Shown here: positions 7,489 to 19,798 of the stretch, in pieces | Position numbering within the stretch: position 1 is the first letter of the stretch | Layout of the letters: every line of letters begins with the position of its first letter | Assembly (NCBI GenBank): GCA_045046875.1 | Contig: JASFYY010000020.1 | Location: 1-60,602 of the forward strand | DNA length: 60,602 nucleotides | Reading direction: 5' to 3' | Source of the DNA: Verrucomicrobiota bacterium | Lineage (GTDB): Bacteria; Verrucomicrobiota; Verrucomicrobiia; Verrucomicrobiales; DEV007 | The notes under the pieces: model-generated | Seen by the model: the letters and a program-made list of their open reading frames with translations, nothing else | The model's database searches: none | Told to the model about the DNA's origin: nothing | Position numbers and translations under genes: made by a program

Positions 7489-8419
7489 ATGAGATCCTTA
7501 TTTTTATTCTTAACGATTTTTGTCACCCTAAGCACGCTCAGCGCCGCCGAGCAAAAACACGACGCCTACCACTGGAACTCACTAATCGGCAAAGGCATCA
7601 ATCTCGGTAATGCCCTCGACGCCCCCAAAGAAGGCGCTTGGGGAGTCACTCTTAAAGAAGCTTATTTCGAACTGATTTCCCAAGCTGGATTCGACTCGAT
7701 CCGCATCCCGGTGAACTGGGCCAATCACGCTGCAAAAAAAGCCCCTTACACCATCGACCCGACCTTTCTCGCCCGGGTGGATTGGGCCGTTGAACAAGCT
7801 CTCTCCCGCGATCTGGTAGTCATCCTCAACATCCACCACTACGACGAACTCTACAGCCACCCGAAAAAAAACCGCGCTCGCTTTGTGGCCTTGTGGAAAC
7901 AACTAGCTGAGCACTACCAAAACTCCCCGGCCACACTGTATTTCGAAATTCTCAATGAACCTCACGGAGAACTCACCAGCGAGCTATGGAACCAATACCT
8001 CGAACAAAGCCTCACCGTGATCCGCAAAGATAAAAACATCATTGTCACTTTTCACTTTTACCTGCCGTTTAAATTCACTCATCAAGGAGCTTCCTGGGTT
8101 GGCGAGCAAAGTCAAAACTGGCTGAGCACCGAATGGCACGGCTCGACCGCCGATAAACAAGAACTTATCGGTTTTTTTGACAAAGCCCACCAATGGTCAA
8201 AAACCCAGCAACGCCCTCTCTAATATGGGAGAATTTGGTGCCTATAACCGCGCTGATACCGCATCGAGAGTGCGTTGGATGGCCTTTGTGAAAAGCGAAG
8301 CTCATAAAAAGAATTTCTCCTGGGCCTACTGGGAATTTTGCTCCAGCTTCGGACTTTACGACTTGAAAACCAAAAAGTGGCGAGGCGAACTGCTCAGCGC
8401 ACTGATTGACAAGGAATGA
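7489..8419 (+). pseudogene. GH5 endoglucanase, frameshifted and with an internal deletion
   Basis: GINLGNALDAP, RIPV, HHY, LNEP in frame 1 up to TAA 8221-8223. The GEFG nucleophile and WAYWEF are in the next frame. Removing one A at 8222-8223 restores L-Y-M-G-E-F. Confidence 0.8.
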
Positions 8420-8603: not shown

Positions 8604-9962
8604 ATGGAAAACAACTCATCTCCTTCAAACAAATCGCTAAGCCCCATTTTATTGCTGGTAGCGGCATTCGCATTCTGCCTCATCATTGGTGGAATCACTT
8701 TAGCAAAAAAATACGCCCCCAAGGCGCTAGCATCCAAAGAACGACATATCGTCAGGAGCGTTGCCGCCTCGCCCTTGAAAGGTAGGACCGCCCGTGTTGA
8801 CCCCGAACTGTTAAAAATCGGCGAAACTACATTTAATACTCTCTGCGCTGCCTGTCACCAGCCCGGCGGCACTGGCAAAGCAGGTTTTGCTCCAGGCATC
8901 CGCAATCACGACTTTCTCGCCCTGGCCTCTGACGATTACCTACGCACTACCATCCGCGCCGGTCGCCCCGGCACGGCCATGGTACCTTGGAGCGCCCTCA
9001 GCGAAAAAGAACTCGCCGGTGTGATCGCCTACCTGCGCACTGGCAACGAAGGTTATGTTTCCGAGCTTTCCCAGGATTCGGAAAAGAAAATCGCCGGGGC
9101 AGCGGGAAAAGGGGAAATCACTTTTGAAACCTATTGCGCCGCCTGCCACGGCCCCAATGCCGAAGGCTATGCCGCCGGAGGATCCGGACCTGGCATCGGG
9201 TTGGCGGGTTTCCTTTCCGTGGCTTCCGATGACTTCATCATGCAGACCGTCAAACACGGACGCTCTGGCACGGCGATGCTGCCCTTTGTGGGAGCCAAAG
9301 GGCTCGCCAATTTGTCGGAGAGTAGCGTCGGCGACATCATCGCTTATCTGAGATCCCTGCCCGGCAAACCGGTCGTCGCCGAAGCCAAAAGCACCGCGCC
9401 GCCGGATCCCAAAGCCGGCAAAATGCACTTCGACGCCAACTGCATGGCCTGTCACCAACCCGGCGGCATCGGCAAAGCTGGTTTTGCCCCCAGTATCCGC
9501 AACCGCGATTTCCTCGCCCTGGCCGACGATGACTTTATCCTCAAAACGGTGAAACAAGGCCGCCTGGGTACCGCAATGCTGCCCCGACCCGACCTCTCAG
9601 ACAAAGTGATGGCAGACATCATCGCCTACCTGCGATCGGCTCCAGCAAAAACCGTGGTCAATGTCAGTGTCGATCAGAGCAAAAAGTTCAACGGCGACTC
9701 CCAACAAGGTCATAGCAAATACACCTCCTACTGCTTTGCCTGCCACGGAGACAAAGGCACCGGGTACGTCGCCGGAGGGGCGGGCCCCGCGATTGGATTG
9801 GCCGGATTCCTCTCGGTCGCATCAGATGACTACATTTACCAAACCGTAAAACTCGGACGTATCGGCACAGCGATGAAACCCTTCATCGGAAGCAAAGGCC
9901 TCGCCAACCTGAATGACCAGGACGTTTACGACATCATTTCCTATTTAAGAAGTTTAAATTAA
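8604..9962 (+). CDS. Membrane-anchored tetraheme c-type cytochrome (four class I/cbb3-subunit-III-like domains)
   Basis: N-terminal hydrophobic helix. CAACH, CAACH, CMACH and CFACH are each followed by a GRxGTAM motif (putative Met ligand). Confidence 0.88.
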   Translation: MENNSSPSNKSLSPILLLVAAFAFCLIIGGITLAKKYAPKALASKERHIVRSVAASPLKGRTARVDPELLKIGETTFNTLCAACHQPGGTGKAGFAPGIRNHDFLALASDDYLRTTIRAGRPGTAMVPWSALSEKELAGVIAYLRTGNEGYVSELSQDSEKKIAGAAGKGEITFETYCAACHGPNAEGYAAGGSGPGIGLAGFLSVASDDFIMQTVKHGRSGTAMLPFVGAKGLANLSESSVGDIIAYLRSLPGKPVVAEAKSTAPPDPKAGKMHFDANCMACHQPGGIGKAGFAPSIRNRDFLALADDDFILKTVKQGRLGTAMLPRPDLSDKVMADIIAYLRSAPAKTVVNVSVDQSKKFNGDSQQGHSKYTSYCFACHGDKGTGYVAGGAGPAIGLAGFLSVASDDYIYQTVKLGRIGTAMKPFIGSKGLANLNDQDVYDIISYLRSLN

Positions 9963-9983
9963 TCACCAGAAACCCAAGTAACG

Positions 9984-12602
9984 ATGAAAAGAAGAACACT
10001 ATTAAAAAGCTCGGCAAGCGCTGTTGCCCTATCAACCGGGGTGACCAAAACGGGATGGGCGGTACCTTCGGGTGATGAAATCGAGCTAGAAGGCAAAGAG
10101 GCCAAAACCGATTGTTATGCGGCTTGCCCTTATTGCGGAGTAGGTTGCGGAACGATCATCAAAACCAAAAACGGCCGTATCACCAACATCGTACCGGATA
10201 AAGATCACCCTACCAACAAAGGCCTGCAGTGCATCAAAGGCCTGACCTCGGCCGAGGCCATCTACGTCAATCGTCTGACCAAACCGCTGATCCGCAAAGA
10301 TATGTCGGATCCGCTGCGTGGCCATGTTTCCAAAACCAAAGGTTCCTACGATCCCGAACTGTTCCGCGAAGCCTCTTGGGAGGAAGCCGAAGAATTGATC
10401 GCCGAGCAGATCACCGAAATCATCAAGGAATCCGGTGGCAACTCCGTGGGACTCTACGGATCCGGACAACTCTCGCTCGAAGGGCAGTATCTGGAAAACA
10501 TCTTCATGAAAGGTGTGATCGGCTCCAATACGATCGAGGCCAACGCACGTATGTGCATGACTTCGGCAGTGACCGGTTATTTTAAATCACTGGGCTCGGA
10601 CACCCCGCCCACCTGTTATGATGATGTCGAACTGGCGGACATGATTTGTTTCTGGGGACACAATGCGCGTGGCGCCCATCCGATTCTATACTGGCGTGTC
10701 GCCGATACCAAGGCCAAGCGCGACATTCCTACTCTAGTGGTCGATCCTCGCCGCACGGGTACCGTGATGGGCTTGGAGGATGTGGATAAAAACAACAGCT
10801 TCCACTTCCCCACCATCAATGGTGATATTTCGATTCAAAATGCCATCGCCTGGGCGATTCTGAACAAACACCCCGAAGCGGTGAACTGGGAGTTTTTGAA
10901 AAAACACACCTCCGGCTGGGAAAACTACATCAAAGAAGTCAAAGAGGGCTACAAACCCGAGGACGTCGAAGACCGCACCAAGATCCCCGCAGCCGAAATT
11001 TACGAAATCGCAAAAATCTGGGCAGAAAAAAGTGTTCAGGGTCGCGAACGCGGCAGCGGCGGCGTGCTCTGTATCTGGGGCATCGGCTACAACCAGCACC
11101 TGCATGGCCAGAACAATACCATGAGCTTGGTCAACTTACTCGCTCTGACCGGAAACATCGGTCGTCCCGGTTGCGGACCTCACTCCCAGACTGGACAACC
11201 CAACGCCATGGGAGAACGTCTCACCGGCGGACTTACCGGACGTTTGCCTTTTAATATCGGCATCAAGGATGACAAACACCGCAAATGGTGTGCCGAGCAA
11301 TGGGGCATCCCGCAAGAGCGCCTCGACGCGGTCGCCAAAATGGAGAACGTCGGCATGGCCGTTGGCATGATGGAACGCGCACTGAAAGGCGAGGTCAAAG
11401 CGATGTTCCTGATCTACGCGACTCACATCGACCTTCCCGATGCTTATAACCTGTCGCGACCAGCGCTGACCAAAACCTTCACGGTGGCCCAGGAAATCTA
11501 CAAAGACGCACCGAACAATCTATACGCCGACGTGATTCTGCCCGCCGCCACTTGGGGCGAATGGGTCAACGGCATTTACATCCAATCGGAACGTCGTCTC
11601 TACATCAATGAAGGCACCGGCAATCCGGTCAAAGGCTGCCGTCCGGACATGGACATGGTGATCGACAAAGGCAAGTTGATTGCAGAAAAACTCGGTCTCG
11701 ATGCAGAAAAAATCTTCCCTTACCAACGTAAGGAAAACGGTTTTTACGATCCTGAAGAGGTGTTCCGTGATTTCATCAAAGCCTCCAAAGGCAGCGACTG
11801 CGATCTCACTGGTATCCTTGAAGTGGAAAAAGAAACCGGCAAGTCTCCTTATGAGCAGATCAAGGAACTGCGCGGTATCCAATGGCCGGCACCAACCGCA
11901 GCCATCGCCAAAGCCGGCGGCACCAAACGCCGCTACATGGGGCAGGAAGCCGCTTGGCCGGACAAACCCTATTCTGAGTTCCGTCACAAGGACGGCAAGA
12001 TGCACTTCAACATGTGCCATCAGGATTATTCCAACTATCGCGAGATCACCGACGAACTCTCGAAAGTGGGCGTCGAGCCAGGCTTTTACATCACCGATCA
12101 CATGGATCTACTGGTGAAAGCCCGTGACGCCGGACTGACCCCTGAGCTTCCGCACGCGGAGCACCTCGGCAAAAAAGCAGGCGAAGCACCCAAGGGAACC
12201 TACCCTTTCTGGTGGGCCACCGGCGTGGTTTACGAACACTTCCACACCGCAAAAACCATCCGTGCGGGTACCACCAAAAAACTGGTGCCAGAGATGTACG
12301 TGGAAATGCACCCCGACGACGCCAAGGAGCTGGGAGTCAAAGACGGCCAGTGGGTCAAAATCACCACTCGTCGTGGATCGATCGAAGCCCGTGCTTCCGT
12401 CGGCCTGGATTCCGCAGTCAAACCAGCGCGTAATACCGTACCTAAAGGTTTCCTCTTCAGTCCGTGGAATCTGTCAGTGGCAGACTCAGCGGATCCGAAG
12501 AAAAACAAATGGTTGGCCAATGGCACCACTCACCGGGCCTTTGATCCGGTGTCGGGCCAGGCTGACTTTAAAAAATGCGCAGCGCGAGTAGAACTTCTGT
12601 GA
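9984..12602 (+). CDS. Tat-exported molybdopterin (bis-PGD) oxidoreductase, nitrate reductase family (NapA/NasA/NarB-like)
   Basis: MKRRTLLK twin-Arg signal, CPYCGVGC...C [4Fe-4S], ANARMCMTSA (Cys-Met), TGQPNAMG, C-terminal molydop-binding domain (VEMHPDDAKELG, DPVSGQADFK). Confidence 0.85.
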   Translation: MKRRTLLKSSASAVALSTGVTKTGWAVPSGDEIELEGKEAKTDCYAACPYCGVGCGTIIKTKNGRITNIVPDKDHPTNKGLQCIKGLTSAEAIYVNRLTKPLIRKDMSDPLRGHVSKTKGSYDPELFREASWEEAEELIAEQITEIIKESGGNSVGLYGSGQLSLEGQYLENIFMKGVIGSNTIEANARMCMTSAVTGYFKSLGSDTPPTCYDDVELADMICFWGHNARGAHPILYWRVADTKAKRDIPTLVVDPRRTGTVMGLEDVDKNNSFHFPTINGDISIQNAIAWAILNKHPEAVNWEFLKKHTSGWENYIKEVKEGYKPEDVEDRTKIPAAEIYEIAKIWAEKSVQGRERGSGGVLCIWGIGYNQHLHGQNNTMSLVNLLALTGNIGRPGCGPHSQTGQPNAMGERLTGGLTGRLPFNIGIKDDKHRKWCAEQWGIPQERLDAVAKMENVGMAVGMMERALKGEVKAMFLIYATHIDLPDAYNLSRPALTKTFTVAQEIYKDAPNNLYADVILPAATWGEWVNGIYIQSERRLYINEGTGNPVKGCRPDMDMVIDKGKLIAEKLGLDAEKIFPYQRKENGFYDPEEVFRDFIKASKGSDCDLTGILEVEKETGKSPYEQIKELRGIQWPAPTAAIAKAGGTKRRYMGQEAAWPDKPYSEFRHKDGKMHFNMCHQDYSNYREITDELSKVGVEPGFYITDHMDLLVKARDAGLTPELPHAEHLGKKAGEAPKGTYPFWWATGVVYEHFHTAKTIRAGTTKKLVPEMYVEMHPDDAKELGVKDGQWVKITTRRGSIEARASVGLDSAVKPARNTVPKGFLFSPWNLSVADSADPKKNKWLANGTTHRAFDPVSGQADFKKCAARVELL

Positions 12603-12633
12603 TGCTCGTCACTGCGACAAGAAAGTCTGAATC

Positions 12634-13287
12634 TTGTCTGAAAAATCATCATCTGAAAAAAGTAGCGGACTCAGTAGAAAACGCTTCATCGGCTCATTTG
12701 TTCTTGGATTAGGGGCAACCCTGCTATTGCCCCTGATCGAAAAACTGCCGATTTCCGCCCAGGTAAAACTGAAACGCTTCCTGCGCCCGCCGGGAGCGCA
12801 AAGTGAAGCGCTTTTTTTACAAAACTGCATCGCCTGCGGTCAATGCGCCAACGTCTGTCCCAACCAATGCATCAGCCTTTATGGGCTGGAAGCAGGATTG
12901 GAGAACCTAGGCACACCGCGTATCACAGCGCGCGCCCAAGCCTGCATTCTCTGCATGGCCTGCACCCAGGTCTGCCCCACCGATGCGCTTGAAAAACTCG
13001 AACCCACCAAGGAAGGCAAGCGTGCCGTGCAAATGGGCGTCGCTGTTCTTTCCGAGGATCTTTGTTACTCTTTTGCAGGTCGCACCTGCGGAGTCTGCTA
13101 CCGCGCCTGCCCCTTGCCCGGGGAAGCAATGACCATCGGTCTATTTGAGCAACCCCACGTGCACGCCGAACACTGTGTCGGCTGTGGCCTGTGCGAACAA
13201 GCCTGTGTGAAAATGCCGCAGGCCATCCGCATTATTCCCCGTCTCGAACTTGAAAATGCGGCTAAATCCCAAACAAAAATATCATGA
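12634..13287 (+). CDS. NapG/MauM-like polyferredoxin 1
   Basis: LRPPGA motif and four Cys clusters (CIACGQCANVCP, CILCMACTQVCP, C...CGVCYRACP, CVGCGLCEQAC). TTG start is uncertain. Confidence 0.85.
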   Translation: MSEKSSSEKSSGLSRKRFIGSFVLGLGATLLLPLIEKLPISAQVKLKRFLRPPGAQSEALFLQNCIACGQCANVCPNQCISLYGLEAGLENLGTPRITARAQACILCMACTQVCPTDALEKLEPTKEGKRAVQMGVAVLSEDLCYSFAGRTCGVCYRACPLPGEAMTIGLFEQPHVHAEHCVGCGLCEQACVKMPQAIRIIPRLELENAAKSQTKIS

Positions 13288-13892
13288 TACGTCGAAAATT
13301 CACTCGAATGGTATTGCGCACCGTAGGCGTAAGCATCGCATCCTTTGCCGGACTCGGTGCTTTTGCCGGTTTGTTAAAAAGAAAAGCCGCGCCCAATCCT
13401 GTAATAGGAGAACCCGAAATCATCCGCCCTCCCGGCGCCTTGGAAAACGAAGCCGACTTTTTATCCCAATGCATCCGTTGTGCCCGCTGTCGTGATGCCT
13501 GCCCCACCGGCGCGATCAAACTGGGAGGATTCAGCGATCCCGCACAACTGGGCACGCCTTACGTTTTGCCCTTTGAATCAGGTTGCAACTTGAGCCTCGC
13601 CTGCACCACCACCTGCCCCACCGACGCGCTGCAACTGCTGACCCTCACCAAAGACGTGAACATGGGACTTGCCGTGGTTGATGAACGCACCTGCGTTTCG
13701 TTCAATGGCACCGGAGTCTGCGGTGCGTGCCACACCGCCTGCCCCTTCAAAAATTTCGCCATCACCCAAGGCTCGCACAACGCCCCCACCGTTCACCAAG
13801 ACCACTGTGTCGGCTGCGGTTTGTGCGAAGAAGCTTGCATCGTTGATGGCATCAAAGCTATTCGAGTTTTTTCCGGAAGGGAGTCCCTATGA
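13284..13892 (+). CDS. NapG/MauM-like polyferredoxin 2
   Basis: IRRKF twin-Arg-like start, IRPPGA, CIRCARCRDACP, CNLSLACTTTCP, CGACHTACP, CVGCGLCEEAC. Confidence 0.85.
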   Translation: MIRRKFTRMVLRTVGVSIASFAGLGAFAGLLKRKAAPNPVIGEPEIIRPPGALENEADFLSQCIRCARCRDACPTGAIKLGGFSDPAQLGTPYVLPFESGCNLSLACTTTCPTDALQLLTLTKDVNMGLAVVDERTCVSFNGTGVCGACHTACPFKNFAITQGSHNAPTVHQDHCVGCGLCEEACIVDGIKAIRVFSGRESL

Positions 13893-14905
13893 GCAAATTA
13901 TTCACCACCCCATCCGGCTTTGCCGGTTCAACTCTGGTACAAGTTCTGCGCCATACAATTCGTTTGGCGATATTACTAAGCATCATCGGTGTCGGCCTAG
14001 TGGCTCACTACCGGGTTTTTGTCACCAAGGAAAAAATCAATGTCATCCAGTCGGAAGACAACCCCAACCTGGCGCGCAAAACCGCCCTGATGATGCACGA
14101 GCACCTACAAACTGCCGAAGTTCAACGGGGCGTCGAACAAAAACGCCTGTCCGATATTCGAGGCAATACCTGGTCAGCCGACATCTACGGCTTCAGCGTG
14201 ACCGACCCTCTCGCCGGGGCAGAATCAGTGGCTACCAGTCGCACTATAACCAAATCCCTGCTGATCGGCTTGGCTCTGCCTGTGATCGCCACCCTGCTAC
14301 TGGGACGTTTTTTCTGCTCGTGGATTTGCCCGGCAGGATTCCTCTTCGACATCGCCGACCGCCTGCGTGCCCTGTTGCAAAAAATCGGTGTGCCGGTGCA
14401 TCACCTTCACCTCTGGCGCGGCAATAAATACGTGCTGCTGGTGACCGGACTGATCATTGGCGCGGTTGTGGGCGTTCCTGTGCTGGGAGCTTTTTATCCA
14501 CCCGCCGTACTCGGCCGGGAGATCAGCCACCTCACCGCCTCCTTTTTCTCGGTGCTCAGCGACTACCCTGTAGTGACAGGTATTTCCCTCAGCGGACTAT
14601 TCATTGTCGGTATCATCATCGCCGAGACCTTTGTCAGTCGCCGTCTGTGGTGTCGCTATGTCTGCCCCGGCGGCGCCTTGTATTCCCTGATTGGAATGGG
14701 ACGAGCGGTGCGGGTTCACAACGACCTGAAACAGTGCACCCACTGCACCGAATGTGTGCAAGTCTGCCCAATGGGTCTCAACCCGATGAAAACAAAATCA
14801 CCAGGCATCGAATGTGACCAATGCATGCTGTGCCTGAACACCTGCCCACCCGGATCGCTGAGCTTGCAATTCGGGCTAGCCAAACAAAACAAGGGGAATG
14901 ACTGA
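13889..14905 (+). CDS. NapH/MauN-like membrane ferredoxin 1
   Basis: TM helices, TDPLAG, GRFFCSWICP, RLWCRYVCPGGALY, two C-terminal CxxCxxCxxxCP. Confidence 0.87.
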   Translation: MSKLFTTPSGFAGSTLVQVLRHTIRLAILLSIIGVGLVAHYRVFVTKEKINVIQSEDNPNLARKTALMMHEHLQTAEVQRGVEQKRLSDIRGNTWSADIYGFSVTDPLAGAESVATSRTITKSLLIGLALPVIATLLLGRFFCSWICPAGFLFDIADRLRALLQKIGVPVHHLHLWRGNKYVLLVTGLIIGAVVGVPVLGAFYPPAVLGREISHLTASFFSVLSDYPVVTGISLSGLFIVGIIIAETFVSRRLWCRYVCPGGALYSLIGMGRAVRVHNDLKQCTHCTECVQVCPMGLNPMKTKSPGIECDQCMLCLNTCPPGSLSLQFGLAKQNKGND

Positions 14906-14918
14906 AGCTGCAAATCCC

Positions 14919-14981
14919 GGCAAGCGAAGCGCTCGCCCTACAGACGCACCGCCTCATTGTAGGGCGGCCGCTCCGGTTGCC
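14919..14981. repeat. Inverted REP doublet (REPIN/BIME-like), family B copy 1
   Basis: GGCAAGCGAAGCGCTCGCCCTACA (14919-14942) and TGTAGGGCGGCCGCTCCGGTTGCC (14958-14981) are imperfect inverted copies. The same pair recurs at 33070-33144. Confidence 0.75.
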
Positions 14982-15022
14982 CACTCAACCCACCCGACCT
15001 CAATCCGGTCAACTGCTCCACT

Positions 15023-15976
15023 ATGAAATCAGGACGTCTGCTGCTGGCCATCTCCATTATCTCCCGAATCGGGGTGGTGACGATCCTTTGCGCCCTGGCT
15101 TTATTAACCCATTACCACAATCTCAAAACCGCCTATAACAATCCCCGCCTAGTCGAACTCAGCAGCGGCAAAACAGCTCGTTTTCTTTACCAAAGCAGCG
15201 ACGACTTTTTATCCTTGTTCGGTGATCCGCAACAAGTCGCCCGCAAAAGCGGCGGCATGACCTGGTCCATCCGCCTCGCCGGCATTCCTTTCACCGACCC
15301 CGTCGCCGCGCTCTCTGTCCTGGCAAAAAACCGCCGTTGGGAACTCGGTTTTGCCTTGGGGCTGATCGTGCCCCTGAGCCTGGCTTTCATCTTTGGACGG
15401 GTTTTCTGCTCTTACATCTGCCCCGCATCCCTACTGTTTTTCTCCATTTCCCGACTGCGGAAATTGCTCTCCCCTATTTTCTTTTTCCCCGACCTCAAAA
15501 TAAGCCGGGGGTTTTCCTGGGGAATCCTCGTCGGCGGCCTGAGTCTGGCCGTTTGGTACAGTCATGGCATTTGGATCCTCATCCTACCCTACTTTGCTAT
15601 TGGCCAGACCATCTACGCAGGCATCGCCTCGGGCACCTTGTCGATTGCCCTTGGCAGTCTGGTGCTGTTCTGCTCCCTCGACCTGTTTCTCGGCAAACAA
15701 TTCACCTGCCGCTACGTCTGCCCGACCGGCCGCTTACTGGGTTTCATCGGCAGGAAGTCGCCGATCACCATCCAACGCGACAGCAGCACCTGCCTCGACT
15801 CCTGCCAGAGTTGCATAGACGTCTGCCCAATGAAAGTGCAACCCAAATACGATGAAAGCATCGACTGCTCGATCTGCGGCGAGTGCCTGACTGTCTGCCC
15901 ACCGCAGTGTCTCTCCATCGGCTTGCGCAAGAAAACCAAAGCCGCTCCGGTTGCCGATTCTAAATCTTCCGCATGA
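15023..15976 (+). CDS. NapH/MauN-like membrane ferredoxin 2
   Basis: TDPVAAL, GRVFCSYICP, CRYVCPTG, CLDSCQSCIDVCP, CSICGECLTVCP. Confidence 0.82.
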   Translation: MKSGRLLLAISIISRIGVVTILCALALLTHYHNLKTAYNNPRLVELSSGKTARFLYQSSDDFLSLFGDPQQVARKSGGMTWSIRLAGIPFTDPVAALSVLAKNRRWELGFALGLIVPLSLAFIFGRVFCSYICPASLLFFSISRLRKLLSPIFFFPDLKISRGFSWGILVGGLSLAVWYSHGIWILILPYFAIGQTIYAGIASGTLSIALGSLVLFCSLDLFLGKQFTCRYVCPTGRLLGFIGRKSPITIQRDSSTCLDSCQSCIDVCPMKVQPKYDESIDCSICGECLTVCPPQCLSIGLRKKTKAAPVADSKSSA

Positions 15977-16590
15977 AAAAACATCTTTCCATCCTCTGGC
16001 TCGGACTCTGCGCAATCGCCTTGTGCCTGCTGCCCCTGACCGCCTTGGCTCACCACTTCAAGGGACTGCCACACTACAACTATTTCGAAAACTACCCCGA
16101 GATCCCCGAAGACGAATTTCTCGGCCAAGTCGGCGACTACGAGGTATCACTGGTCGTCTATGACTTTCAGGGTATCCAACGGGAGAACGTCGATGACCCC
16201 GATATGGTGCGCCTGTTCCTGGTCATATTCAACCTGCGCAACAACGACATCTACGGCGGCCCTTTGACCATCGAGGTGCTCGACAACGGTAAAGTTGTCC
16301 ACAGCGAACGACACAAGTCCTCGGAACTCGAGAACCTCTACTCAATGCACCAGAACCTGGCCGACACCGGCAATTACGCTCTACGCCTGACCCTGCACAG
16401 CGTCGATGATCTGCAGTGCGTGATCCCGTTTAAATTATCTTCGCAAAAAATCCACTGGGGCAAATGGGTCGCCGGCTCCATGCTGGTAGTGATCATTATC
16501 GCCGCCATCGGAGCCAGAAAAGCCCGCGTCTCAATGGATAGAAAAGAAGAAGCTGGCAGAAGGAGAGAGGAGTCAGGAGAGAGGAGTTAG
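15973..16590 (+). CDS. Hypothetical exported, C-terminally anchored protein
   Basis: Sec-type signal ending ALA, mature start HHFKGLPH, one C-terminal TM followed by basic residues. 4-nt overlap with the upstream gene. Confidence 0.75.
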   Translation: MKKHLSILWLGLCAIALCLLPLTALAHHFKGLPHYNYFENYPEIPEDEFLGQVGDYEVSLVVYDFQGIQRENVDDPDMVRLFLVIFNLRNNDIYGGPLTIEVLDNGKVVHSERHKSSELENLYSMHQNLADTGNYALRLTLHSVDDLQCVIPFKLSSQKIHWGKWVAGSMLVVIIIAAIGARKARVSMDRKEEAGRRREESGERS

Positions 16591-16646
16591 AATTTAATAT
16601 TATCACCAAAGATCCGGCTTCTACCTTCTAAATTCTACCTACTAAA
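16561..16646. repeat. Heptamer short tandem repeats, two facing arrays
   Basis: AGGAGAG-AGGAGTC-AGGAGAG-AGGAGTT-AGAATTT, then TTCTACC-TTCTAAA-TTCTACC-TACTAAA. Confidence 0.65.
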
Positions 16647-16649
16647 AAT

Positions 16650-18185
16650 ATGAACCACTCCGAAATGAACGCAAGCGGCGGCCACATGATGGACGGCATC
16701 CCCGTATGGATGGGCGTCGTAGGTTTGATCGCCATCATCATTTCTTCCCACCTGCTGGTGCGCTACCGCAAACCCTCCATCGAACTGATGGACTACCCGA
16801 AGTGGCGCTTGTTTAAGTTCAAATGGATCTCCGGCCTGGTAAAAAAATCCTGGTTCCCGCTGTTGGTGCAATCCCTGTCGATCTTCTTTTTCCTGTTAGT
16901 GATCACCGCCGGTCTGATCGGCAATGACAAACACAACATCGGCCCGGTACTGACCTGGACCTGGTGGTGGGTGCTGCTGATTTTTCTCGCTATGGGCTTT
17001 GGTAAAGTCTTCTGCATGATCTGCCCCTGGGAGGGGCTCTCTTCAATGATCACGTCTCTCTCATTCACCTCGCGGGTAAAAAAACTCGGCTTTGATCTGC
17101 CCTGGCCCAAATGGGCACGCAACATCTTCCCCGCGATCATCTTTTTCATCATTCTTACCTGGTTCGAACTCGGTCGCGACATCACCCGCTCGGCGATGTG
17201 GACCTCCATCCTCGGGCTGGTCATGGTCAGTATGGCCGTGCTCTCCGCCATCATCTTCGAAAAACGTTCCTTCTGCCGCTACGGCTGCCTGGTCGGCCGC
17301 ATCAGTGGTTTGTATTCACTCTTCGCCCCGGTCGAACTGCGCGCCGCCTCGGCTGACGTTTGCGGTGACTGCCATGGTAAAGAATGTTACACCGGCACCG
17401 CCACCACCACCGCCTGCCCGACCTTCCTCTTCCCCTCCAAGCTCAGTGAAAACTCCTATTGCACCCTGTGCACCGAATGTGTTCGCTCCTGCCCCCACGA
17501 CAATTTGGAGATCAATTTCCGCCCCATCGGCACCGATCTCAAAAACAAAGACAAATTCCAGTGGGACGAATCCATCCTCGCCGTTGTGCTGCTCTCACTA
17601 ACCAGCTTCCACGGACTCACTATGACTCCACACTGGGGACACTGGAACGGTGTATTGCGTGCCGAGACCGGCCTCGGATCCACCGCCGTCTTCACCATCC
17701 TGATGAGCCTGATGATCATTCTGCCCATTCTGCTTTTCTGGGTCGGAGCCAAAATTGCACGCAAACTTGCCCAGCCTACCGAGGTCAGTGCGGCAGAAAT
17801 CTTCAAAGCCTTTTCCTACTCTCTGATCCCCATCGCCCTGTTCTATCATCTGGCGCACAATACCATGCATTTTTTCATGGAAGCCCAACACCTCACACCA
17901 CTGTTGAGCGATCCCTTTGGTTTTGGCTGGGATCTATTCGGAACCGCAGGCAAAACCTACTTACCGCTGCTGTCGCTCAATACCATCTGGTACCTGCAAA
18001 TCACCTGCGTCATCATCGGGCACCTCTACGGCGTGGTGATGGCCGATCGTTTCGCCCGCCGTTTGTTCGGCGACAGCCCGACCGCCTTCCGTAGTTTGAT
18101 CCCGCTTATTTTCACCATGATCCTCTACTCCAGCTTCAGCGTCTGGTTGATCATGCAACCGATGGACATGCGCTCGGCGATGTGA
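16650..18185 (+). CDS. Polytopic membrane 4Fe-4S-binding protein (polyferredoxin of the broad NapH/CcoG/NosR-C-terminal type)
   Basis: About 10 TM helices, GKVFCMICP, RSFCRYGC, CGDCHGKEC...CP, CTLCTECVRSCP. Confidence 0.78.
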   Translation: MNHSEMNASGGHMMDGIPVWMGVVGLIAIIISSHLLVRYRKPSIELMDYPKWRLFKFKWISGLVKKSWFPLLVQSLSIFFFLLVITAGLIGNDKHNIGPVLTWTWWWVLLIFLAMGFGKVFCMICPWEGLSSMITSLSFTSRVKKLGFDLPWPKWARNIFPAIIFFIILTWFELGRDITRSAMWTSILGLVMVSMAVLSAIIFEKRSFCRYGCLVGRISGLYSLFAPVELRAASADVCGDCHGKECYTGTATTTACPTFLFPSKLSENSYCTLCTECVRSCPHDNLEINFRPIGTDLKNKDKFQWDESILAVVLLSLTSFHGLTMTPHWGHWNGVLRAETGLGSTAVFTILMSLMIILPILLFWVGAKIARKLAQPTEVSAAEIFKAFSYSLIPIALFYHLAHNTMHFFMEAQHLTPLLSDPFGFGWDLFGTAGKTYLPLLSLNTIWYLQITCVIIGHLYGVVMADRFARRLFGDSPTAFRSLIPLIFTMILYSSFSVWLIMQPMDMRSAM

Positions 18186-18197
18186 TTCTTTCTATTT

Positions 18198-18824
18198 GTG
18201 AGCTCTAATTTTTCCAGACGACAACTCTTCAAATTACGTCTAGGTGACGTAGGCAACCTTGTGCGCCAGGCTCGCCAGAGCCTCGTAGAAAAAAACACAG
18301 AGGACGAGTCCCCCGCTGCAGAAAGCCCGGCCGAAAACATCAACATCATCCGCCCACCCGGCGCCCTTTCACCCGACAGCGATTTCCTTGCCACCTGCGA
18401 GCGCTGCCACGCCTGCGCCGACGCCTGCCCCCACGAAGGAGTGATTCAAACCTTCGGCCCCTCCCACGGAGCCAACGAAGGCAGCCCTTTCCTCACTCCC
18501 GGAGAAGCTCCCTGCCGCTGGTGCTTCGACACCCCCTGCATCAGCGCCTGCCCCAGTGATGCCCTGCAAATTCCTAAAACAGACAGCCACGAAGCGAAGC
18601 CCCTTGCCGCCATCGCCGCCGCCGTGCTCGATCTCGACAGCTGCCTCAATAATCAAGGCACCATCTGTGACACCTGCGCCCTGATGTGCCCGCCACACAT
18701 CAAAGCCATCAAGATGATCAGCCGCCAGCCCCACATCGACGTCGAGCTCTGCACCGGCTGCGGCATGTGCGCCTACTACTGCGAATCAGAGCCCGGCTCG
18801 ATCACGATTGTGCCGCTCTCTTAA
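18198..18824 (+). CDS. NapF/NapG-like ferredoxin 3
   Basis: SRRQLF start without a hydrophobic h-region, IRPPGA, CERCHACADACP, CRWC...CISACP, CDTCALMCP, CTGCGMCAYYC. Confidence 0.8.
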   Translation: MSSNFSRRQLFKLRLGDVGNLVRQARQSLVEKNTEDESPAAESPAENINIIRPPGALSPDSDFLATCERCHACADACPHEGVIQTFGPSHGANEGSPFLTPGEAPCRWCFDTPCISACPSDALQIPKTDSHEAKPLAAIAAAVLDLDSCLNNQGTICDTCALMCPPHIKAIKMISRQPHIDVELCTGCGMCAYYCESEPGSITIVPLS

Positions 18825-18884: not shown

Positions 18885-19463
18885 TTAAACTCCTCCCTCC
18901 CCTGAGAAAAACCTTTCCGCCCAGACAGGTATCCTCTCCAACGTTTTTTGAAAAACCTCACCAGATCGGAATTCACCCAATAGCCGAAAGGGAGTCTCAT
19001 ATGAGCTGTTATCATAAATGGTAACCCGCGGTAACAACGCGATGGCTCGTTCCAAATTATCCAAATTGCGCAAGTAACGAGCCACTATCTTTTCTTCCGG
19101 AACAGAATGCCCTCCTCGCTTGACACGAGATTTCACCCGCTTCACAGCCATAGCCGAATCCTCAATTCCAATAAATATCAATTGAACATCAAAACCCGCT
19201 TCAACCGCTCCCGCCAAAAATTCAACCTTCTCTCCCACAGGATCGGACAACACCGTTTCAGTCACAAAACTCTGTCCACGCTCGACCATCAAACGACGAA
19301 TAGCCGTCGTTTGTGATGCTGCTTCATATACACCCATGCCTGTTGATGCCCGCAAAACATCCGCGTTCAAAAAAGGAAGCTGCAAAGCAGACAAGTAAAC
19401 ACGGTGAAAAGTGCTCTTCCCTGCACCGTTGGGCCCAGCCAACATGATCAGAACCGGATCCAC
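18885..19463 (-). CDS. Zeta-toxin-family P-loop kinase/ATPase
   Basis: AGPNGAGKST Walker A, SFVTETVLS, RVKSRVKRGGHSVPE. Confidence 0.8.
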   Translation of the reverse strand: MDPVLIMLAGPNGAGKSTFHRVYLSALQLPFLNADVLRASTGMGVYEAASQTTAIRRLMVERGQSFVTETVLSDPVGEKVEFLAGAVEAGFDVQLIFIGIEDSAMAVKRVKSRVKRGGHSVPEEKIVARYLRNLDNLERAIALLPRVTIYDNSSYETPFRLLGEFRSGEVFQKTLERIPVWAERFFSGEGGV

Positions 19464-19741
19464 TACGGTTGAGAAACAATGTTAGCACTCGTTCTCTGAA
19501 TTTCCACCTGCGCTTTTTTGATACCGCTACTGCTTCCTACCACAGATAGGGCTTCATCAATTTTTTTACGGTCAACGGCAGCGAGCATCTTCTTTTCAGC
19601 AGGATAAGATAAGGCCACCTCCATCACCCGCCCTATTGCCGCCCAATGCTCAATTTGTTGAGGCGGCGAGCGATGGAACAACGCCGCCTGCTCCTTTGCC
19701 ACCTCGGCGAGTTCATCGCTAATGCGTATGGACTGACTCAT
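19463..19741 (-). CDS. ParD-like (RHH) antitoxin
   Basis: SIRISDEL...HRSPPQQIEHWAAIGRVME. Its stop overlaps the toxin start. Start taken at ATG 19741. Confidence 0.75.
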   Translation of the reverse strand: MSQSIRISDELAEVAKEQAALFHRSPPQQIEHWAAIGRVMEVALSYPAEKKMLAAVDRKKIDEALSVVGSSSGIKKAQVEIQRTSANIVSQP

Positions 19742-19751
19742 ACTTTTACGC

Positions 19752-19776
19752 TGTGGCAATTTACCACAATTGTCAA
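19752..19776 (-). promoter_or_regulatory. Putative autoregulatory operator and -35 box of the TA operon
   Basis: Near-palindrome TGTGGCAATTTACCACA (19752-19768) between a TTGACA (19771-19776, minus strand) and the antitoxin ATG. Confidence 0.5.
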
Positions 19777-19798
19777 TCAATATCACTATTCGACACCG

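Follow-up and report, generated by a model that had tools for sequence, protein, structure and literature searches.

What reaction is served by a nine-gene operon that sets a molybdoenzyme of the nitrate reductase family beside NapG- and NapH-like proteins, and that carries neither napB nor napD? The question is raised by a 60,602-nucleotide stretch of DNA from a Verrucomicrobiota bacterium (contig JASFYY010000020.1 of assembly GCA_045046875.1), which was analysed at its full length and is called the window below. A first-pass annotation had seen in this operon a separately assembled periplasmic electron-transfer chain and had called its substrate and direction unknown. Here we compare the genes with known systems, follow them through other genomes and weigh the reactions that they may serve.

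Results

Gene content of the operon

The nine co-oriented, tightly spaced genes of the first-pass annotation were all confirmed: the ORF list places them on the plus strand between positions 8604 and 18824 of the window, close together or overlapping, with the exception of one gap of 117 bp (14906-15022). Their identities were assigned by profile searches with Pfam and NCBIfam models (Table 1), and none of the nine has a closer paralogue elsewhere in the host genome. Directly past the cassette, at 18885-19786 on the minus strand, the window encodes a Zeta-toxin-like ATPase and a ParD-like antitoxin. A GH5 glycoside hydrolase at 7489-8419 is apparently split into two frames (244 and 80 amino acids); the same region is a single 339-aa ORF in the relative L004.

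Table 1. Genes of the cassette, their positions in the window and the basis of each assignment.
Gene product	Position	Strand	Basis
Cytochrome c, 452 aa, membrane-anchored, four class I domains	8604..9962	+	PF13442 x4, 4 CxxCH, one N-terminal hydrophobic helix
Catalytic Mo-bisPGD/[4Fe-4S] subunit, 872 aa, twin-arginine leader, Cys191 ligand	9984..12602	+	Profiles, residues, tree
NapG-like polyferredoxin 1, core gene	12634..13287	+	NapG model, 140.6 bits vs cut-off 269
NapG-like polyferredoxin 2, optional in verrucomicrobial-type loci	13284..13892	+	Profile match
NapH-like membrane Fe-S protein 1, optional second copy	13889..14905	+	Profile match
NapH-like membrane Fe-S protein 2, core	15023..15976	+	Profile match
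His-His protein, 205 aa, predicted exported, C-terminal anchor, Ig fold, orphan in profile searches	15973..16590	+	Alignment, structure model
511-aa membrane polyferredoxin, weakly NapH-like N-half and C-terminal helical domain	16650..18185	+	Profiles, alignment
NapF/NapG-like ferredoxin	18198..18824	+	Profile match

The catalytic subunit falls outside the NapA clade

The curated model that fits the Mo enzyme best is the NapA model NF010055, with 359.7 bits against a cut-off of 904. The NapA model TIGR01706 gave 331.1 bits (cut-off 930.55) and two assimilatory Nas models gave 294 and 255 bits (cut-offs 1000 and 1100), and the protein stayed far under the cut-off of each of the NasA, NasC and Fdh models. 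Among solved structures, its nearest relatives are those of NapA. Over the trimmed columns its identity is 29-36% with heterodimer-type NapA, 34-37% with NapA of the monomeric type, 31-34% with Nas and 26-29% with formate dehydrogenase; heterodimer-type NapA and Nas share 29-38%.

The active site of the Mo enzyme follows the Nap/Nas pattern in CxxCxxxC, C83, K85, C191-M192, NQ370-371, T403-G-Q405 and R412. Formate dehydrogenase, which has a His after the Cys/Sec, RGQ and no Arg at 412, was ruled out as an identity by Met192 and TGQ; the host genome carries a separate Fdh. Beside the shared pattern stand changes that are specific to the family: Ile367 where Nap/Nas have Met (a position that we take to be Met308 of D. 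desulfuricans NapA), the loss of the acidic residue following R412, and, near the site and funnel, Val748 for Arg, Phe753 for Trp and ATH for TNP at 479-481, together with a 49-residue insertion at 681-729. The substitutions near the site are invariant within the family, whose mean column identity is 77% (56 sequences). An RR motif with a hydrophobic stretch, recognised by motif and not by a predictor, is present in nearly all full-length relatives, and we infer that the Mo enzyme is exported by the Tat system. One family member, P0124, is degenerate and has no catalytic Cys-Met motif.

Trees were built with 75, 50 and 35 rows (locus L092 is in none of them); one tree step took 45 of the 150 cluster representatives, and P0124 was dropped thereafter. 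Among the representatives of clusters at 50% identity, only four long family matches (38-53%) came ahead of ordinary Nap/Nas sequences. In the tree of 50 rows, the family and NapA, represented by 10 and 14 rows, form distinct clades, each with an SH-aLRT of 100, and monomeric-type NapA (Selenomonas and kin) falls in the NapA clade. Grouping the family with heterodimer-type (E. coli-type) NapA was rejected (p-AU 0.017; quick tree, LG+G4). In quick trees as well, a position as sister of Nas was not rejected (p-AU 0.42), and the unconstrained tree sets the family nearer NapA. The tree as a whole sets it within the Nap/Nas radiation. In the available part of PMC10100899, Nap and Nas are treated as one radiation, in which the characterised members reduce nitrate and this branch has no name. 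These sequence comparisons point to a lineage of its own for the Mo enzyme, apart from NapA and NasA alike; nesting within characterised NapA, which the first-pass annotation had named as a point that would speak against it, is not seen, the NapA clade excluding the family.

A c4-like cytochrome is predicted to replace NapB

The protein first described as a tetraheme cytochrome does have four haem motifs, but these belong to a c4/CcoP-like dihaem unit with His/Met ligation that is repeated in tandem, and the protein is not of the NapC type. The cytochromes of relatives have two haem motifs in 34 of 71 loci, four in 32, three in 3 and six in 2, and the distal Met is invariant in each domain of the dihaem unit (56 sequences). 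CcoP is the closest solved protein, and c4/CcoP-like His/Met cytochromes are usually of high potential.

When the Mo enzyme was modelled in complex with the last dihaem unit, the score was 0.65, compared with 0.00 for the best of three controls, with contacts agreeing between runs by at least 56% and a partner pLDDT of at least 87. Among reference cases, 116 of 157 solved complexes and 2 of 215 mismatched pairs attained this mark, figures that carry over only roughly to a model made with its own alignment. At the modelled interface the region round the fourth cluster Cys of the 4Fe-4S meets haem 4 of the cytochrome. The model supports docking of the cytochrome at the 4Fe-4S face of the Mo enzyme, in the place of NapB, and the cytochrome is predicted to be the direct electron donor that replaces NapB.

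Iron-sulfur, His-His and 511-aa proteins

NapG-like protein 1 has a leader with a degenerate twin-arginine motif, and the NapG and NapH homologues are present but stay under the model cut-offs. In many relatives NapH-like protein 2 and the His-His protein are one polypeptide, and since 17 ORFs join the domains of two or all three of NapH-like protein 2, the His-His protein and the 511-aa protein, the three likely act as one unit. The mature His-His protein is predicted to start with His-His, and both residues are invariant in all 55 aligned rows, which were chosen by that motif. Its profile had no match at E < 0.001 among Pfam and PDB sequences. The structure model is an anchored Ig-like sandwich (pLDDT 82.7), for which the best folds, among many Ig folds, are DUF3244 (Z 9.7), CrdA (Z 9.6), PmoD (Z 9.3) and P19/FtrA (Z 8.1). 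CrdA, PmoD and P19 bind copper, and the His-His protein likely binds a metal (copper or iron).

The membrane domain of the 511-aa protein has seven invariant residues, His302, His381, His384, His388, Met306, Met486 and Met488 (numbering of alignment A3), and a Foldseek comparison of its model with the PDB gave no match at E 0.001. Three of its 30 plasmid homologues were inspected: one, in M. chubuense NBB4, sits between copper and di-iron monooxygenase clusters, and the other two were uninformative. The NapF/NapG-like ferredoxin has an RR motif and no hydrophobic leader, and it is likely a cytoplasmic maturation factor, as NapF is.

The cassette is widespread and its core conserved

A genome scan reported 380 stretches that encode relatives of the Mo enzyme. 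The best 80 of these, 59-100% identical to it and largely marine by their record titles, belong to Verrucomicrobiota, Planctomycetota, Lentisphaeria, Omnitrophota, Eisenbacteria, Latescibacterota, Cloacimonadota, Chloroflexota, Bacteroidota, Myxococcota, Spirochaetota and Proteobacteria. The closest relatives among those listed are Verrucomicrobia, which agrees with the verrucomicrobial host that had been thought probable. Carriers include Ruegeria sp. HKCCD8929, Lentisphaera profundi and Microaerobacter geothermalis, and the names in databases vary ('molybdopterin-dependent oxidoreductase', 'ferredoxin-nitrate reductase', 'nitrate reductase NapA', 'anaerobic selenocysteine-containing dehydrogenase'). 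A plasmid search returned no member of the family, the best identity being 31.5% over most of the length.

Of the genes around the Mo enzyme, the cytochrome was found in 51 of the 55 long loci (those with at least 7 kb downstream), G, H and the His-His protein in 53 each, and the 511-aa protein in 39. The conserved core consists of the cytochrome, the Mo enzyme, NapG, NapH and the His-His protein, so that the gene set is indeed kept together. All nine genes occur in 9 of the 55, in a different order in one of the nine. Two traits by which the operon had at first been defined did not hold. Doubling of the G/H module was rejected as a defining trait, as two H-like genes are present in only 10 of the 55 long loci; NapG-like 2 is absent from most verrucomicrobial-type loci, among them L003 of the same genus, which has no extra pair. 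Absence of NapC is not a defining trait either, as NapC lies upstream of the cassette in 19 of 22 proteobacterial loci (by sequence cluster; two members confirmed with Pfam). In L056 and L058 the Mo enzyme stands without downstream G, H and His-His genes, and in L056 also without the cytochrome; in L040 the cassette is divided into divergent halves.

Among related genomes the Mo enzyme was found in 8 of 61 (this one counted), and five of these eight are among the six genomes of the same genus. Such patchy spread suggests lateral movement or frequent loss.

Genome context of the host and of other carriers

Profile searches of the host genome, whose assembly is 94.7% complete, found no NapB, NapD or TorD/NarJ-type chaperone, and tblastn of E. 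coli NapB, NapC and NapD against it gave no match; NapA, NarG, NrfA and NosZ were also not found in the assembly. The genes napB and napD, the presence of which elsewhere in the genome would have spoken against the first-pass annotation, are thus missing from it together with nrfA, while nirK is present. The absence of a nitrite reductase and a nitrate transporter holds for the window itself, but both nirK and a nitrate transporter are encoded elsewhere in the genome. The host NirK (C54:14298-15797) scores over the cut-off and has a cytochrome c-like domain. The genome also encodes a qNOR-family protein, a cbb3 oxidase and three other haem-copper-family proteins, and its Nas, NirA and NarK form a separate, complete assimilatory cluster.

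The qNOR homologue (C149:44870-47359; L100:4874-7360, minus strand) matches 3ayf at E 1e-135 and has close copies (86-97%) in G003, G004 and G005 of the same genus. Its site motifs, HMWVE and HNFYW, depart from the HLWVE and HHxY of seven ordinary qNORs and resemble the signature of the putative NO dismutase (Nod). A further host locus, C55:10824-15339 (L103), encodes an octahaem cytochrome with weak Hao/HDH similarity, along with DsrO/DsrP-like and tetrahaem genes, and is possibly another quinol-linked nitrogen or sulfur redox module.

Either nirK or nirS is present in four of the five carriers of the same genus. Among 54 carrier genomes, many of them MAGs of unstated completeness, a respiratory nitrite reductase was found in 21 and not found in 33; nirK is present in 9, a nirS-family gene in 8, nrfA in 4, NarG-type genes in 5 and a chlorite dismutase-family gene in 7. 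The nirK gene also occurs in 6 of 27 non-carriers of the same family. A NapA-type gene is present in 18 of 50 carrier genomes (15 over the cut-off), which suggests a non-redundant role for the cassette, and all 14 NapD matches over the cut-off among the 54 carriers are in genomes with such a gene.

FNR-type boxes lie upstream of 7 of 18 proteobacterial loci (shuffles: mean 0.47, maximum 2; control windows: 21 of 479). In the Verrucomicrobia-containing group there is no enrichment (3 of 37 vs 1.7 expected), and upstream of the operon in this window there is no FNR-type box. A search for upstream NarL sites found none. At L042 (G088 contig C8, L042:17903 onward) the cassette is directly followed by a NapA-type gene and then by nirK and qNOR on the same contig; in G017 it lies about 7.5 kb from nirK, and at L059 it adjoins a Crp-family gene and a NarQ/X-like sensor. 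Of 323 candidate flanking proteins 125 were scanned, and most are unrelated to nitrogen; Moco genes and one NarQ/X-like sensor stand out, and NarK, NirA and NirB are absent from the 125. In 13 loci (L059, L061, L063, L065-L068, L075, L076, L078-L080 and L042) the cassette is flanked by a protein with a DUF255 thioredoxin domain; other flanking genes are a MOSC-type gene, predicted from its appearance (11 loci), MoaA (8 loci) and a porin of the alginate-export type (7 loci).

Discussion

Relation to known systems

The cassette is like E. coli NapAB (napFDAGHBC; PDB 2nya) in having a Mo-bisPGD/[4Fe-4S] subunit with a twin-arginine leader and a Cys-Met active site, in its NapG/H/F-like partners and, in the proteobacterial form, in NapC. 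It differs in sequence (29-36% identity, 360 bits vs the cut-off of 904, a separate clade), in lacking NapB and NapD, in having a class I His/Met dihaem-repeat cytochrome, and in adding the His-His and 511-aa membrane proteins. Monomeric-type NapA, as sampled from Selenomonas and kin, differs from it too, at 34-37% identity and by its place in the NapA clade. NasA, NasC and NarB share the GQPNAMG motif, the Cys-Met site and 31-34% identity with the Mo enzyme, but are cytoplasmic and clustered with nitrite reductase and NarK, whereas the cassette has an RR leader, a c-type cytochrome and NapGH. P19/FtrA with FtrD and FixG/CcoG with FixH are metal-handling modules; the cassette resembles them only at the level of fold (Z 8-9.6, among many Ig folds), in a putatively metal-binding periplasmic Ig-fold protein beside a NapH-like membrane polyferredoxin, and has no Ftr1 permease or cupredoxin.

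Nap systems without NapB are described in PMC4911364 and PMC5317091 for Desulfovibrio desulfuricans (napCMADGH; PDB 2jio), Thermosulfurimonas (napMADGH) and Caldithrix. As in these, a tetrahaem cytochrome gene stands right before the catalytic gene, G and H follow, and NapC is dispensable; the Desulfovibrio and Thermosulfurimonas operons have napD, which the cassette lacks (NapM and Caldithrix are compared by description). The cassette would work like NapB-less Nap, yet is outside NapA by score, by phylogeny and by its lack of NapD and NapB. A search of the open literature, with subscription papers and supplements outside its scope, found no description of the Mo-enzyme family. This is apparently a widespread, uncharacterised branch of the Nap/Nas kind, and within that scope the operon keeps its standing as a candidate for an undescribed system.

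Proposed function and its alternatives

We think that the operon probably encodes a periplasmic nitrate reductase that is independent of NapB and NapD. Nitrate reduction is suggested by the Nap/Nas active-site residues of the Mo enzyme, by its position inside a radiation whose characterised members reduce nitrate, by partners on the quinol side (NapG/H in 53 of the 55 long loci, NapC in 19 of 22 proteobacterial loci) and by the complex model that joins haem 4 to the 4Fe-4S region. It is suggested as well by a host that has nirK, a qNOR-family gene and cbb3 without NapA or NarG, and that keeps its assimilatory Nas cluster separate, by the FNR-type boxes of proteobacterial loci and by the nirK, NapA and NarQ/X neighbours at L042, G017 and L059. 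Against it we count NapA in 18 of 50 hosts, the 33 of 54 carriers in which no nitrite reductase was found, nirK in non-carriers, the family-specific site changes, the lack of FNR enrichment in the Verrucomicrobia-containing group and the mostly non-nitrogen flanks. The substrate and direction are less obscure than first stated, as residues and genome context favour nitrate reduction; the separate periplasmic chain on a non-NapA catalytic subunit is supported by the separate clade and the conserved cassette.

In such a nitrate reductase, quinol would be oxidised by the NapH/NapG-like proteins, with NapC as an added quinol entry in Proteobacteria, and electrons would pass from the c4-like haems through the 4Fe-4S cluster to Mo. 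At low oxygen, periplasmic reduction of nitrate would yield nitrite, which in this host would be handed to NirK. The NapF-like protein would assist maturation without NapD. In what is the weakest part of this scheme, NapH-like protein 2 may combine with the His-His and 511-aa proteins into one membrane unit that binds or delivers metal. The nitrate reducer Microaerobacter geothermalis carries a distant family member, P0122; as its genome lists NarGHJI-type genes (PMC9119079), this species provides no test of the substrate of the Mo enzyme.

The same architecture and direction might serve another marine oxyanion or oxide as acceptor, such as iodate, selenate, chlorate, bromate or an N- or S-oxide. 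This would fit the co-occurrence with ordinary NapA, the many carriers in which no respiratory nitrite reductase was found, the invariant substitutions near the site, the very high conservation across phyla and the mostly marine record titles. We hold it to be possible but doubtful, given the intact core of Nap/Nas residues and the place of known iodate, selenate and DMSO reductases in other clades (as set out in PMC10100899); the models of such reductases, among which there is none for iodate reductase, give 28-135 bits. (Per)chlorate respiration was rejected as a general role, the chlorite dismutase family being present in only 7 of 54 carriers and absent from the host genome.

It is unlikely that the Mo enzyme oxidises its substrate, which might be nitrite or some other reduced oxyanion, and sends the electrons through the His/Met cytochrome to a cbb3 or aa3 oxidase while G/H links the quinone pool. 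A c4/CcoP-like partner, of a type that usually has a high potential, and a host with cbb3 and three other haem-copper-family genes would suit an oxidase, but quinol oxidation is the usual task of NapC and NapGH, the FNR-type boxes indicate induction at low oxygen, and no characterised Nap/Nas enzyme is known to be a physiological oxidase. Moreover, the nitrate couple, at +433 mV according to PMC10100899, can take electrons from His/Met haems. The same source has NapA acting in redox balancing and assimilation, and a periplasmic nitrate reductase of either kind, not serving respiration, would agree with the p-AU of 0.42 for a sister of Nas and with the many hosts in which no respiratory nitrite reductase was found; we judge it very improbable, as the host has a complete, separate assimilatory cluster and NarK, NirA and NirB are missing among the flanking proteins scanned. 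A bolder and tentative view is that low-oxygen seawater and sediment harbour, in this cassette, a new respiratory complex of the periplasm. Its Mo enzyme, of a third lineage and with a remodelled funnel, might act on a non-nitrate substrate or on trace nitrate, and the membrane unit (NapH, His-His protein and His/Met-rich polyferredoxin) might hold a copper centre undescribed in Nap-family systems.

Significance

Standard nitrate-reductase gene profiles miss the Mo-enzyme family. If its members reduce nitrate, the first step of denitrification would be open to many marine MAGs, this one included, that are now scored as having neither nap nor nar, and that step would be under-counted in gene surveys of oxygen-poor waters; the family would also offer a Nap-type enzyme that matures without NapD and uses a c4-like cytochrome. 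The named carrier species make the cassette testable. If the substrate is another one, the cassette would stand for an unrecognised respiration.
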